DNA from: a virus
Direction: 5' to 3' (one strand)
Virus record (IMG/VR): IMGVR_UViG_3300025141_013434
Span: 64,001-128,000 of that record
DNA: 64,000 nt
Notes under the pieces: generated by a model
What the model saw: the letters and a program-made list of their open reading frames with translations, nothing else
What the model was told of the DNA's origin: nothing
Databases searched by the model: none
Program-made: the position numbers and the translations under genes
Part shown: positions 19,437 to 45,946 of the stretch, piece by piece
Layout of the letters: each line of letters starts with the position of its first letter
How positions within the stretch are numbered: the stretch's first letter is position 1

Positions 19437-20050
19437 TTGCACGTCTCATAAATAAATTGAATATATCTCACCATTAGTATTTCTTTCACCTTATCATCTG
19501 CATTATACCATTCCCAAGAGGCTGTAGACTTCATTCCTTTTAATTCTTTTTTTAGTGTTTCTATTTCTTCGTTTAAGATTTCAATTTGGCTATCATCAGG
19601 CGGTGGCAGTTCAACTTTTAGTTTTTCCGAAATCTCGTACAGATCGCTCAAGTTCTTTTTATCCGCGGCTTCTTGAGCTACTTTAAATAATTCCTCTTTC
19701 TCTTTTCTCTCGTTGTCAGTCATTTCGACAAGCTTATCTGGATGGATTTCTTTTGCTATATTTCTGAATATCTTTCTTACTGTACTAGAAGGTGGTTGAA
19801 TTTCTTTTATTTCTTCTTTTTGAACTTCCTCTGCTCTCTTTTTCGAATTGTCTATCATCCCCTTCTTTGTAATATCCTCAAAAACCTTCCTATCTTCTTT
19901 TGAAAGGTTGTTTTTAATAAAATTATTAAAAGCCGAAGCAAAATGGGCTGAAGCAGCTGATGCTAGATCTCTATTTATTTCTAATTTTGCTTTTAAGAAC
20001 TTTAATTCTAAAAGCCGAAGATCGAACTCTTGCTTTGTCACGGAGGGCAT
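19433..20050 (-). CDS. J-domain-containing protein
   Basis: 'VRKIFRNIAKEIHPDKL...EELFKVAQEA' is the J-domain helix II-HPD-helix III pattern. Confidence 0.75.
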   Translation of the reverse strand: MPSVTKQEFDLRLLELKFLKAKLEINRDLASAASAHFASAFNNFIKNNLSKEDRKVFEDITKKGMIDNSKKRAEEVQKEEIKEIQPPSSTVRKIFRNIAKEIHPDKLVEMTDNERKEKEELFKVAQEAADKKNLSDLYEISEKLKVELPPPDDSQIEILNEEIETLKKELKGMKSTASWEWYNADDKVKEILMVRYIQFIYETCK

Positions 20051-21330
20051 TAAAAATCCAGTTTGAGCTTGAAAGTGTATTCTCTTTCTTCTGTCTTCCT
20101 CACTGGCTTAGCAAGCTTGGCTATACCGATAAGGTTTCTATCTTTATCATACACCCCTATCTTCGAAATGTAAACCTCTTTTTTATATGATCCTGTGGGA
20201 TCCACATATTGAGAATTGTTAAGATTAACAAACTCCAAATCGTCAAATTCTTTAAAATGTTGACTAGAAGTTTGTGGAGTTTTTGATTGATCGAACCTCG
20301 TTACTGTTGGATTTGTTGAATTATTTAATTTGCCGCGGCCCGCATGAGCCATCATCGTTACAGTTGGGATGTAGTTAACTCCCTGATATTCTAGCACGAA
20401 TGCCGAACCTGTCACTACGCCGGCGGCTGTACCGTCAAAAGCACCTGCGCCAAAGTCCGTCCACTTTGGAGTCGAAAAAGCCCCGCCAGTGTACTTATCT
20501 TGAAAATCTGCGTTTATGTTCCAGCTACCAGTAAGTGCAATAAAACCTTCATTGTACAAGACAACGCCAGCAACTTTGTCATTATAAGCAGTAGAAGACC
20601 CGGCAGTGCCGGATACCTGAATTAATTCGCCGTTCTTCTTCTTGTCCGTAATTTCTGCAGCTAAAGCGCCAGTGATATAAAATTTTAAAGATACTGATCC
20701 TTTTCTTATGGAGGATCCGTAAAATATCGAAGGTATCTCTATGAGATTTAGTAACTGGCGGCCCTTGTCCCAGTTTACATCAGGTGGTGCAGCTTCGACC
20801 GATGAGGAAGAAAACAAATAGTGTTTACTGATATTAGAGTAGCTATTGAAAACGTTCTTTAAAGCTAGAATATTTTTCTTACTATTAGCAACCTGGGTGA
20901 CTTCACCTTGCACAAATCTGTCTGTTATCGATGCCGTTGGTGGGCCGACCGCAAAACGAGTCCTGGTTATACTTGCCGTAAGGGGGTAATTACTTTTTAT
21001 AATATCCCCGTAATTGAACTGATTGGCAGAGTCAAATTCACTGGTACTTATTGTCTTAAATGCTGTACGAGCGCCGTTCTTTGTTACGAATGGAAAGATT
21101 GAACCTGAACCAGGAGGTTCTGATGTGCTTTGGTCAATTACCCTGTCTATATTGAGTTCATATAAACTCAAATATCCCTGTGTAGTTGCAAGCTCGTTAC
21201 TAAGGAGTGATTTGCTAGTCTTTATTCCGTCAATATAAACTTTAGAATCGTATATAAAAAAAGATTTTCTGGGATATGCTTTTACTCTGTTGTAGAACAG
21301 GTCTTCTGAATTGAATTTGTAAAGTGGCAT
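20050..21330 (-). CDS. Virion baseplate/tail protein
   Basis: C-terminal 'ISKIGVYDKDRNLIGIAKL..P.RK...KLKLDF'; paralog of 21346..22686. Confidence 0.7.
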   Translation of the reverse strand: MPLYKFNSEDLFYNRVKAYPRKSFFIYDSKVYIDGIKTSKSLLSNELATTQGYLSLYELNIDRVIDQSTSEPPGSGSIFPFVTKNGARTAFKTISTSEFDSANQFNYGDIIKSNYPLTASITRTRFAVGPPTASITDRFVQGEVTQVANSKKNILALKNVFNSYSNISKHYLFSSSSVEAAPPDVNWDKGRQLLNLIEIPSIFYGSSIRKGSVSLKFYITGALAAEITDKKKNGELIQVSGTAGSSTAYNDKVAGVVLYNEGFIALTGSWNINADFQDKYTGGAFSTPKWTDFGAGAFDGTAAGVVTGSAFVLEYQGVNYIPTVTMMAHAGRGKLNNSTNPTVTRFDQSKTPQTSSQHFKEFDDLEFVNLNNSQYVDPTGSYKKEVYISKIGVYDKDRNLIGIAKLAKPVRKTEEREYTFKLKLDF

Positions 21331-43972: not shown

Positions 43973-45946
43973 TTACTTTTCTACTCTAAATTTAAATACC
44001 TGCTCTTGTACAATATTTTGACCGCCATGGTCATAAGCCAGTTGTATGGCATAAGAATAATCCGACTCGAACATGGACATGTCTAAATCAAAATAGTTGC
44101 CCTTCTCGTCATAAGACATTCTCGTATATTTGCCCTGCTGGCCTGAACCCGTACCAAATGGTATTACATCAAACTCGTCAATAATTCTATACACTCTATA
44201 ATATGCATTTTCTATATATTCTGCTTCTGCAGTGTTCTTGGCAACATTGTAAATATTTGGCTGCCAATCTTTTTGCCTAACATGTACTCTAAATCTTGGC
44301 TTATCTCCTTGGGAATATGCGCTTTTCAAGTTTGTTATCTTGGTAACGTAGCGATTACCCGGATTATAATGCAAAGAGCCAAACTTCTTGACATCGAATA
44401 CAGAACCAGTTACTAGCTGAATTCCTTGTATTACTTTGGTAGGCTTGCTCCAAATATCAAAAATCTCTTTTTCAGAGCCAGTAAATGCAAAAGATGCGGA
44501 ATATATTCCGGTCGAAACCCAACCCCCACTTATCACAGTAGCTCCGTGGACGGTGACGCCGCCGCCGATGGGCAAACTTTTCGCCTTTATAATTTTATTC
44601 TTTATATTGCCAGAAGGAAAAACCTGCACATGTATGCTTGTATGTGCATCGTTACTTCCGGAATTGCCGCCCAAGACTGGTATATTCTTTAGTTTGCCTC
44701 TTACATAATTGTACAGATACAGAGTGTTTAAATTGTCTTCTCCAGATGCCAAAGAACTGCTCATAAAGAAATTTCCGCGGTCGTCTCTTTTTGAGCTGTC
44801 CCAACGAGCTTCGATCAGAGGCCTCTTATAAAAGAATTCACTAGTACGAGAAAAGAACTTTTTAGTATAATAAGATCTGCCTCTGGTCCCGTCTTCGTAG
44901 GAGGATTCCGCCGTAGATGAACCCGATAACCTTATCATCACGCCGTGATTTTCTCTATCGGGGTCTGTAGCACTTTCTGCTTTTATCCATTCTTCCACTA
45001 GTGAAGTTATGTTGACCTCCAAATTCTCGGGACCTTTTGTAAAAGACTGCACATAATGTGGAAGGTTTCGACCAGCAGTATAACCTATTTCATGAAAATC
45101 TCCGCCAGGATTCGTCCACACGGTCATGCCACCAGTTTGTTTCGTTTCTATAGAAAGATGAGCGGTACTCACCGACCCCTGATATGACCCGGAAATACCA
45201 CCCTCAGATGTAACTGTTATTCTTACTGTTGCTTGGGTTGCTTCTGCTGTGTCGCCGGCGGTCCAAGAGGCAGAGAGGCCCGTTACAGTTGTACCATCTT
45301 GAGAGCCCGTGTTTACCGCTCTGGCGAGTTGTTTTGCAAACTCTTTGGCAGTGTCAATCGCCGCACCAGTAAGAGGTACTGTAACCTCGGTTCCCTCTGG
45401 GTTGGGCCCACCATCGCTGGATTCTACCATGAACCAGAAATTGTATTTTGTACCTTCTTGATTATGTATCGAAAAATATTTATTTTGATAATTGGTCTTT
45501 GTGTTTGTGAGGAATTTAACATCGGTTATGTGCTTCTGTTTTGTAGTGTTAGCAACGTCCCAGTTCGCAACGCCCTCGTCGCTATATTGTTCCATATCCA
45601 GGCCAGTGCCCTCCGTGAAAGATCTAGAGAGGGGCAAGATTTGTAATTTATAATCTTTAGGGAGAGTTTGTCCATGAGGACAATTAAAAAGCCTCAAATA
45701 AAAATTCACACTTCCAGAGTGCGGAATAGTTCCTGCGTTCCTGTCCGATAAGATTGTAGATACCGGAAACTTCAAAAGGGCGCGAGACTTCTCCACAGAA
45801 GAGGTATTTGCTTGACCATATATTGAAAACACCTCTAATACATCAGATGCGCCCATATTGGAGCCAGTTGCAGAAGAAGAAAGATTCGTCTTGTAAGCAT
45901 TGCTTATGGTTGTATCCGACGTTGCTGTATATCTCTTTATTGTCAT
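43973..45946 (-). CDS. Baseplate-associated virion protein with a DNRLRE-like domain
   Basis: 'ATSDTTI...SRALLKF...LEVNITSLVEEW...NHGVMIR...FFSRTS...PLIEARW'. Confidence 0.7.
   Translation of the reverse strand: MTIKRYTATSDTTISNAYKTNLSSSATGSNMGASDVLEVFSIYGQANTSSVEKSRALLKFPVSTILSDRNAGTIPHSGSVNFYLRLFNCPHGQTLPKDYKLQILPLSRSFTEGTGLDMEQYSDEGVANWDVANTTKQKHITDVKFLTNTKTNYQNKYFSIHNQEGTKYNFWFMVESSDGGPNPEGTEVTVPLTGAAIDTAKEFAKQLARAVNTGSQDGTTVTGLSASWTAGDTAEATQATVRITVTSEGGISGSYQGSVSTAHLSIETKQTGGMTVWTNPGGDFHEIGYTAGRNLPHYVQSFTKGPENLEVNITSLVEEWIKAESATDPDRENHGVMIRLSGSSTAESSYEDGTRGRSYYTKKFFSRTSEFFYKRPLIEARWDSSKRDDRGNFFMSSSLASGEDNLNTLYLYNYVRGKLKNIPVLGGNSGSNDAHTSIHVQVFPSGNIKNKIIKAKSLPIGGGVTVHGATVISGGWVSTGIYSASFAFTGSEKEIFDIWSKPTKVIQGIQLVTGSVFDVKKFGSLHYNPGNRYVTKITNLKSAYSQGDKPRFRVHVRQKDWQPNIYNVAKNTAEAEYIENAYYRVYRIIDEFDVIPFGTGSGQQGKYTRMSYDEKGNYFDLDMSMFESDYSYAIQLAYDHGGQNIVQEQVFKFRVEK

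Follow-up and report, generated by a model that had tools for sequence, protein, structure and literature searches.

An [S/T]-[G/A]-S tripeptide enriched in outward-facing virion proteins of marine far-T4 phages is a candidate O-glycosylation sequon

INTRODUCTION

Mycobacteriophages are reported to glycosylate their own capsid and tail proteins in the host, by means of glycosyltransferases (GTs) that they encode (Freeman et al. 2023, as presented in PMC12363180). Here we analyze an ordered tripeptide, [S/T]-[G/A]-S, that is over-represented in particular virion proteins of an uncultured marine T4-like myovirus, and we weigh the possibility that it marks sites of O-glycosylation by phage enzymes. 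The motif was first pointed out in an earlier note, made from the letters of a 64,000-nt stretch of DNA. This stretch, hereafter the window, corresponds to bases 64001-128000 of the single 145,243-bp viral contig IMGVR_UViG_3300025141_013434 (the reference, G000), which CheckV scores as 68% complete.

Several other systems invite comparison. In Gram-positive bacteria, GtfA and GtfB form a two-protein GT pair, one member catalytic and the other acceptor-binding, that primes intracellular Ser/Thr O-glycosylation of serine-rich-repeat adhesins; strain-variable additional GTs give rise to different glycans, and the acceptors are serines flanked by small residues (PMC6973325). Bacterial autotransporter heptosyltransferases (BAHTs; the TibC/TibA and Aah/AIDA-I systems) hyperglycosylate, in the cytoplasm, many serines of a folded beta-rich surface protein. 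Their acceptor serine is presented by a protruding short loop, the mapped sites are Ser-Gly or Ser-Ala, and it is Ser, not Thr, that carries the modification (PMC4358343). Transferases of the Maf/FlmG type are described in PMC7591256 as O-glycosylating the exposed part of flagellin in the cytoplasm with pseudaminic/legionaminic-type sugars. Chloroviruses, reviewed in PMC9614988 and PMC5408694, encode soluble GTs that build atypical glycans on the major capsid protein (MCP) independently of host machinery. Our literature search found no published description of an [S/T]-G-S sequon in phages.

RESULTS

The tripeptide is over-represented in particular virion proteins

The earlier note had counted [S/T]-[G/A]-S by hand in long open reading frames (ORFs) of the window, all of which lie on the minus strand. 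Each of these counts was reproduced exactly. Expectations were obtained from composition-preserving shuffles, supplemented by a first-order Markov (Markov-1) model and by permuted tripeptides. The proteins concerned, together with three that served as internal controls, are listed with the number of sites observed versus that expected from shuffles:

32099..43972, minus strand: giant 3957-aa virion protein with a LamG/ConA-like domain at residues 162-353; 46 [ST][GA]S sites, 30 of them [ST]GS, versus 9.8
43973..45946, minus strand: p657, 657 aa, directly downstream of the gp6-like wedge gene; 11 sites, 9 of them [ST]GS, versus 2.0
21346..22686, minus strand: 446-aa tail-module protein of no known family; 7 sites versus 1.5
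20050..21330, minus strand: 426-aa tail-module protein of no known family; 6 sites versus 1.1
3297..4523, minus strand: 408-aa head-module protein without a family and without a homologue in related loci; 4 sites versus 1.4 (marginal, p about 0.05)
3..992, minus strand: N-terminal 330 residues of the gp23-type MCP, whose full gene (genome 63208-64992) encodes 594 aa; 5 sites versus 1.4 over the full length
45946..47757, minus strand: gp6-like baseplate wedge, positional landmark and internal control; 1 site versus 0.7, not enriched
48171..56015, minus strand: 2614-aa virion-module protein of no known family, internal control; 1 site versus 2.4, not enriched
26757..31019, minus strand: 1420-aa virion-module protein of no known family, internal control; 1 site versus 2.6, not enriched

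For the giant protein, the excess over the shuffle mean (sd 3.1) corresponds to z = 11.7, and the sites are dispersed over the first ~3500 residues. The rough expectation of fewer than 10 sites given for this protein in the earlier note agrees with the shuffles. So does its statement that the 2614-aa, 1420-aa and SbcCD proteins have few or none, since their counts (0 versus 0.8 for SbcCD) are at or below expectation. The 2614-aa and 1420-aa proteins give zero Pfam or PHROG matches and, unlike their neighbors, show no motif excess. Searches of the enriched proteins against Pfam and PHROGs returned LamG_3 in the giant protein and nothing else. Across the remaining 15 thousand residues encoded in the window there is no excess, while a genome-wide count found further enrichment beyond it, in the tail sheath (11 versus 2.8), a 1072-aa protein (21 versus 5.2) and the full-length MCP.

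When the four best proteins were pooled, TGS ranked top of all 8000 tripeptides for enrichment (28 versus 3.3; Markov-1 expectation 9.0), followed by SGS (19 versus 4.4), TAS (11 versus 2.7) and SAS (12 versus 3.6). Rearranged tripeptides proposed in the note as controls were flat or nearly so: STG, 4 versus 3.3; AGS, 2 versus 3.1; GSS, 10 versus 4.4 (Markov-1 8.6). GST, SGT, TGT, GGS, NGS and DGS were at expectation in the same pool.

One explanation to be weighed is an artefact, in which the enrichment would stem from composition, from low-complexity linkers rich in S, G and T, from DNA repeats or from common descent. The enriched proteins are indeed somewhat rich in S, T and G. Yet the excess survives shuffles, the Markov-1 expectation and equal-composition permutations, which rules out composition or dipeptide bias. 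The sites are spread along the proteins rather than placed in linkers, as the note had said of their dispersal. Its remark that varied codons speak against a DNA repeat also held: 62 of 70 sites have distinct 9-mers, and codon use is that of the background, so the signal lies in the protein and not in the DNA. Nor does one repeated domain carry the motif, as no domain is common to the enriched proteins and internal repeats are absent from the giant protein. Shared ancestry is taken up in the next section.

The adjacent 426-aa and 446-aa proteins (window 20050-22686) have only their last 40 residues in common (40% identity, E 1e-7). To judge from sequence, this common C-terminus could be an attachment or adaptor module on otherwise unrelated tail proteins.

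The excess is a lineage trait that persists despite site turnover

The nearest named phages belong to the 'far-T4' group: Flavobacterium phage immuto (MCP identity 48%), Microcystis phage Mel-JY01 and Rhodothermus phage RM378. In IMG/VR, more than 599 contigs have an MCP with 60-78% identity to that of the reference. The excess holds in hundreds of related marine contigs and in immuto, a cultured phage. Among homologues in the related contigs, it is evident for the sheath (161 versus 61), neck (228 versus 60), MCP (253 versus 110 in 77 homologues) and p657 (76 versus 10), and is absent from the portal (11 versus 10.9), terminase (5 versus 6.5) and small inner proteins. Some large ORFs of these contigs have no BLAST match to the reference and are equally enriched (19 versus 3.6, 15 versus 2.3). 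In each of four fully fetched relatives, 3-5 ORFs hold the excess, and the remaining proteome is near expectation.

Summed homologue counts are inflated by shared descent, a point in favor of an artefact, and distinct alignment columns were therefore counted to take it out. TGS occupies 68 distinct columns versus 24-47 for its permutations, and SGS 80 versus 44-49; the excess of SAS is modest. TAS, at 23 columns versus 32-41, shows no enrichment and was rejected as part of a family-wide core, although [ST]-A-S as a class is enriched 3.0-fold in the enriched ORFs of five genomes. The excess thus remains once ancestry is removed, and phylogenetic inflation does not account for it. Taking these columns together with the shuffles, permutations and codon variation, we reject the artefact explanation as very improbable.

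Turnover is frequent among the sites, a few of which are nearly invariant. The giant-protein orthologues in four relatives (G001-G004) are also enriched, and among the five orthologues 47 of 66 motif columns are lineage-specific. Closer pairs of orthologues nonetheless retain the motif more than they do S/T-equivalent permutations. The p657 family has more than 3487 members, many of them from Tara data; in the best 120 of these homologues there are 945 sites versus 112 expected, with at least 4 in each. The conserved sites among these 120 fall at reference residues 27, 77, 252, 489, 513, 599 and 615. At residue 599, T and S interchange in a ratio of 62:55, whereas G and S at the next two positions are fixed.

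Outside this lineage the picture differs. In T4, 23 structural proteins contain 7 sites versus 11.7 expected, with 0 in the Ig-like Hoc, and the sampled proteins of cyanophage S-CAM1 show no excess (5 versus 2.9). The motif is hence not a general trait of myovirus sheaths, fibers or Ig-like decorations. These data show that the excess is a trait of the lineage, specific to certain proteins and under selection.

Positional specificity of the motif

Flanking residues were analyzed for 274 distinct sites from five genomes. The note had observed that the motif often follows a hydrophobic residue; position -1 is V, I, M or L in 48% of sites, compared with 30% in the background. Position +1 is V, Y or L in 43%. 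Hydrophobicity alternates at positions -5, -3 and -1. Upstream of the motif D, E and K are under-represented, as is Pro at +1. Within the motif, position 1 is enriched for S (5.4-fold) or T (5.0-fold) and for no other residue. At position 2, G is enriched 5.2-fold and A 3.0-fold, with S at merely 1.4-fold, and at position 3, S is enriched 5.2-fold, with T at merely 1.6-fold. The values for G are partly circular, because the set was selected on [ST]GS. The value for A is independent of that selection, and it supports the [S/T]-[G/A]-S definition adopted in the note. The same position-by-position scan was flat across 235 thousand residues of other proteins.

An ordered tripeptide thus occurs about five times more often than expected in outward-facing particle proteins of this phage and its relatives. 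The pattern is narrower than ordinary turn propensities would produce, and its specificity is sequon-like. Features expected of a sequon in general are seen here: a short ordered motif exceeds composition, Markov-1 and its own permutations; the excess is confined to 3-5 ORFs of a genome, with the other proteins at about 1.0-1.3 times expectation; and selection maintains the sites, which are retained more than controls and keep their density despite turnover.

Sites lie in loops of putative outer domains

In the sheath, 11 of 11 sites fall within residues 144-665 and none in the conserved C-terminal core. In the MCP, 4 of 5 are in a variable insertion (residues ~165-250) that aligns with the insertion region of gp23. 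AlphaFold2 (AF2) models were made for the sheath and p657, with mean confidence (pLDDT) of 67.5 and 76.3, respectively, and were used for secondary structure and pLDDT. In these models, 16 of 20 [ST]GS sites are in coil, next to beta-strands or in hairpin loops, including loop positions for 9 of 9 sites in p657. Of the motif glycines, 11 of 20 are located in or beside low-confidence loops, a higher share than for other glycines (37/143; Fisher p 0.01). The predicted fold of p657 is an array of Ig-like/beta-sandwich domains, and its Foldseek matches are generic Ig-like arrays. The prediction of surface loops made in the earlier note fares well as regards loops, which lie beside strands and not in cores; the surface exposure is deduced from AF2 secondary structure and pLDDT. 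Judged by sequence and model, the motif appears confined to outward-facing proteins and domains, namely the outer part of the sheath, the capsid insertion, the neck and fiber-like proteins.

Could the motif simply be structural? It might act as an ST-turn, or as a hairpin or strand-end loop, that stabilizes exposed beta-sandwich loops and is favored for folding, stability or subunit contacts. The sugar genes described below would then serve host surface polysaccharide, DNA or lysogenic-conversion-like functions. Location at strand ends and in hairpin loops with hydrophobic flanks fits such a role. Structural constraints commonly call for Gly in turns, many p657 sites recur in over 85% of the 120 homologues (at 43-89% identity), and the link to GTs is correlative and clade-level. 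With turn propensity as the cause, however, N, D or T should be tolerated at positions 1 and 3, and N at position 2 as well, whereas TGT, TGN, SGT, NGS and DGS are at expectation. The motif also occurs in unrelated folds (the LamG region, sheath insertions, capsid insertion and Ig-like arrays) that share no domain, and homologues in T4, S-CAM1 and the 484-kb uncultured phage LR756508 lack it, T4 Hoc and both LR756508 sheaths included. Finally, heavy turnover at a maintained density fits selection on the number of sites better than selection on fixed structural positions. On balance we consider a structural origin unlikely, though a serious contender.

A sugar-gene cassette next to a conserved glycosyltransferase pair

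Two features at the right end of the window bear on what might act on the motif:

62788..64000, minus strand: start of the sugar-synthesis cluster, with Ugd at 62788-63654 and an SDR epimerase/dehydratase from 63641 onward
61281..62075, minus strand: conserved 264-aa protein of no known function, bordering the sugar cassette on the side of the virion genes; 60-79% identical in 4 of 4 relatives

Pfam bears out the ugd and epimerase assignments of the earlier note. Sequence searches gave nothing usable toward identifying the 264-aa protein or toward matching the LamG region of the giant protein to solved structures. Directly to the right of the window, the cluster (~18 kb, about 20 co-directional genes) continues to the end of the contig. 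Its sugar-synthesis genes encode Ugd, two SDR epimerase/dehydratases, a WecB/NeuC-type 2-epimerase, NeuB, a cytidylyltransferase and a PIG-L deacetylase, and its transferases comprise two GT2s, a PHROG glycosyltransferase, two formyltransferases, a carbamoyltransferase and methyltransferases. Two sulfotransferase-like proteins and an SGNH hydrolase are also present. GTs elsewhere in the genome, whose absence the note had named as a refuting outcome, are found adjoining the window, and they are abundant in the relatives. The phage encodes both GTs and nucleotide-sugar synthesis.

Related genomes place this cluster in a larger arrangement. In G004 the cluster is gene-for-gene the same as in the reference. 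G002 and G003 have different cassettes at the same locus, beside the same 264-aa border gene: that of G002 encodes GT4s, a GT32-like enzyme, LicD, APS kinase plus sulfotransferase and a radical-SAM enzyme, and that of G003 encodes GT4s, NeuB, a cytidylyltransferase and MptE-like hits. At the other side of the cassette stand two GT4-type (GT-B) enzymes, GTa (~420 aa) and GTb (~440-705 aa), encoded side by side after a PD-(D/E)XK nuclease. The nuclease-GTa-GTb module was located as follows:

G004, L119:12519-16830
G002, L102:5317-9467
G003, L107:11764-15075
immuto, L136:1965-5884

Wherever an IMG/VR locus has room for it (72 of 72), GTb is the next gene downstream of GTa, while each cassette gene of the reference recurs in just 0-25 of 80 loci. 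The relatives share an order in which the module is followed by a hypervariable sugar cassette, with the 264-aa gene at the far side. From this gene order, the interval between the module and the 264-aa gene looks like a defined swap site for glycan cassettes.

GTa is present in 4 of 4 relatives that are at least 90% complete and is missing from fragments only, the reference among them. The reference contig, which lacks about a third of its genome, ends at a carbamoyltransferase gene inside the sugar cluster (L005:17747-19243), about 4-6 kb short of the position expected for the GT pair from synteny with G004, and this would be why the pair is not seen there. A search for a near-identical complete genome with GTa and GTb yielded, as best relatives, genomes of the G004 type (74-92% identity). 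Of solved structures, the closest to GTa by sequence is the glycosyltransferase B736L (3oy2, E 1.8e-7), which we take to be a chlorovirus enzyme; the similarity is limited to the GT4 C-terminal domain.

We looked for other enzymes that could bear on the role of these genes. PF01973, the Pfam family that holds flagellin nonulosonic-acid transferases, gave hits in the cassette of one relative, G003, and none at E<=0.1 in G000, G001, G002, G004 or immuto; a Maf-type transferase in the reference genome was rejected on this basis. The thymidylate-synthase-type hydroxymethylase family PF00303 was found in none of G002-G005, all 100% complete, while T4 gave three hits. A T4-like hydroxymethylcytosine route to DNA glycosylation was therefore set aside, and a role of the GTs in T4-style DNA glucosylation is weakened.

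The G003 hits include a 677-aa protein (L107:15065-17098) with a GT4 domain and a C-terminal MptE-like/PF01973 match, encoded beside NeuB and a cytidylyltransferase. From its domains, this protein is possibly a nonulosonic-acid protein transferase fused to a GT-B enzyme.

The motif tracks the GT pair better than GTa alone

Among 50,697 phage records, GTa was found only in immuto, Mel-JY01, RM378 and LR756508. Both GTs and a strong motif signal occur together in the marine clade and in immuto, whose sheath has 7 [ST]GS versus 1.3 expected; its tape measure, portal and terminase have none. Mel-JY01 has both GTs and a moderate signal in sheath, neck and MCP. RM378, with GTa only, shows a weak signal. 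The structural genes of LR756508, which has GTa and lacks GTb, are flat over about 92 kb. Neither GT is present in T4, which has no excess; S-CAM1, lacking GTa (GTb was not searched for), has none either.

Co-occurrence of the motif with GT genes, put forward in the earlier note as a check, is therefore borne out for the pair and not for the reference's own cluster. Strict coupling to that cluster, or to GT2/NeuB, fails because G001 and G002 lack these genes yet are enriched, and GTa alone fails because of LR756508. The GT pair is a better predictor of the motif than GTa alone, in a comparison of few, phylogenetically nested contrasts. As GTa is confined to the far-T4 clade, the co-occurrence offers very few independent ones.

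Two observations were made in these genomes. In the structural module of immuto, a 373-aa hypothetical protein (L092:28174-29295) has 12 [ST]GS versus 1.3, the densest case seen. In LR756508.1, positions 202463-208426 (L220) encode two tandem 824-aa sheath paralogues with 0 [ST]GS in both.

The motif might instead be recognized by some other process, phage- or host-encoded: a modification such as phosphorylation, acylation, ADP-ribosylation or phosphocholine/phosphoglycerol transfer, or the binding of a decoration protein or chaperone that docks there. Neither the sequon-like specificity nor the restriction to the surface says which chemistry is at work, and the cassettes do hold transferases other than GTs (LicD, sulfotransferases, carbamoyl- and formyltransferases). 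Yet these vary from phage to phage while the motif is constant, the only conserved enzymes that track it are the two GT4-type GTs, and no kinase or similar conserved candidate was seen in an annotation of the core genome that was not exhaustive. We regard such a process as improbable.

Other genes of the window

The window carries a T4-type structural module that includes a gp20-type portal, large terminase, the gp6-like baseplate wedge, M23 and M74 peptidases and SbcCD. Just to its left are the gp23-type capsid protein, neck protein and tail sheath. At 58228-60961, two adjacent genes, upstream of that for a 728-aa protein, encode cell-wall peptidase domains of different kinds, M23 and M74/MepA-like; by their domains, this gene pair is probably tail-tip lytic equipment.

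DISCUSSION

A proposed virion glycosylation system

We propose that a phage-encoded system for O-glycosylation of proteins in the cytoplasm uses [S/T]-[G>A]-S as its acceptor or recognition site. From sequence data and structural models, we see this proposal as evenly poised, and as ahead of each of its rivals. The motif, which as a rule stands at a beta-strand end between hydrophobic residues, would be read as the acceptor site. GTa and GTb would carry out the priming step on Ser/Thr residues, in loops exposed on outer virion proteins that are folded or being assembled, the targets being outer domains of the sheath, the insertion domain of the capsid, the neck, and baseplate and fiber proteins. 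Enzymes of the strain-variable cassette would then make nucleotide sugars and extend or decorate the glycan; in the reference these would include Ugd, the epimerases, NeuB and cytidylyltransferase, the GT2s, and the formyl-, carbamoyl-, methyl- and sulfotransferase-like enzymes. Differences between cassettes would give each phage lineage a different sugar coat. What the data show is the enrichment, with its specificity, conservation, loop placement and restriction to certain proteins, together with the gene content and synteny; we infer that the GTs act on these proteins, that they recognize the motif and that their product coats the virion.

In a broader form, an abundant lineage of marine far-T4 myoviruses and its cultured Flavobacterium and Microcystis phage relatives would have a general O-glycosylation system of their own, with a sequon in every outward-facing virion protein, a two-enzyme priming pair and a hypervariable cassette through which glycan coats differ from strain to strain. 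We put this forward tentatively, as somewhat short of an even call.

Several points weigh against glycosylation. The link is circumstantial, being drawn from sequences and models, and the association between motif and GTs is largely clade-level, with few independent contrasts. GTa and GTb are not on the 68%-complete reference contig, where their presence is deduced only from synteny with G004. The pair adjoins a nuclease gene, which could point to a DNA-related role. Mel-JY01 has the pair and only a modest signal, its two largest tail proteins being flat, and large virion-module proteins of the reference (2614, 1420, 976 and 728 aa) are not enriched. The placement in loops comes from the secondary structure of AF2 models of moderate confidence. 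Many p657 sites are strongly conserved in position, some in tight hairpins (e.g. 513), which a structural role would also fit. Finally, the PF01973 match in the fused GT of G003 scores 25.9 bits, below the Pfam cut-off of 34.6. The enrichment described in the earlier note is confirmed, and proves both stronger and broader than the note had it. The glycosylation-sequon reading of the note is partly supported: the excess over shuffles and control tripeptides, the loop placement and the GTs beside the window all run counter to the refuting outcomes that it had listed, and the sequon-like specificity and the GT pair speak for it, but the association is mostly a trait of one clade and the reference contig ends before the pair.

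If the glycosylation proposal is right, virion glycosylation would be routine, genome-encoded and strain-variable in a very abundant group of ocean phages, and no longer something peculiar to a few mycobacteriophages. O-glycosylation in bacterial viruses would gain its first simple sequon, making glycosites predictable from sequence, and the 15-20 kb of soluble sugar enzymes that these phages carry without export machinery would be accounted for. There would also be a way into how phages adjust their stickiness, stability, host recognition or evasion of grazers and lectin-like defences, and a compact GT pair with a three-residue tag could serve glyco-engineering. Phages would then have their own version of the variable glycan shields seen in animal viruses, and of glycosylated flagellin. 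Flavobacterium phage immuto, cultured on a Baltic Flavobacterium, offers a harmless system for a direct test of the hypothesis.

Comparison with known systems

With mycobacteriophages, the proposed system would share phage-encoded GTs that act on the phage's own virion proteins. Those phages are siphoviruses and myoviruses of Actinobacteria, whereas the phages here are marine far-T4 myoviruses. The parts of PMC12363180 on which we draw describe no dispersed tripeptide sequon for mycobacteriophages. What sets the present case apart is a conserved GT4 pair with a hypervariable sugar cassette of ~15-20 genes.

Chloroviruses also encode their own GTs, and B736L is the closest solved relative of GTa by sequence; these are, however, giant viruses of eukaryotes. 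Chlorovirus capsid glycans are N-linked at atypical sequons.

Flagellin resembles the putative targets here in being a self-assembling structural protein, and the sugars find an echo in the NeuB and cytidylyltransferase of the reference phage and in the MptE-like/PF01973 hits of G003. The difference is that PF01973 is absent (E<=0.1) from the reference, G001, G002, G004 and immuto. To our knowledge, flagellin O-glycosylation sites follow no strict tripeptide consensus.

In BAHT systems, as for the phage motif, sites lie in short loops of folded beta-rich substrates and in a Ser-Gly/Ala context. BAHTs, by contrast, are a dodecameric iron-finger family that uses ADP-heptose, and their substrates are autotransporter beta-helix repeats rather than virion proteins. 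None of 20 cluster proteins scanned against Pfam contained a BAHT domain, a scan that did not include a search with a BAHT profile.

For GtfA/GtfB, homology is not apparent: Pfam gives only GT4-type domains in GTa and GTb, without DUF1975, and their sequence matches in the PDB do not include GtfA/B. The adhesin acceptors are long, tandem, Ser-rich disordered repeats, whereas the phage motif is a dispersed tripeptide in folded beta-rich proteins, and accessory Sec export has no counterpart in the phage system. The likeness is one of layout: a conserved pair combined with variable extension enzymes, as in GTa/GTb and the cassette.

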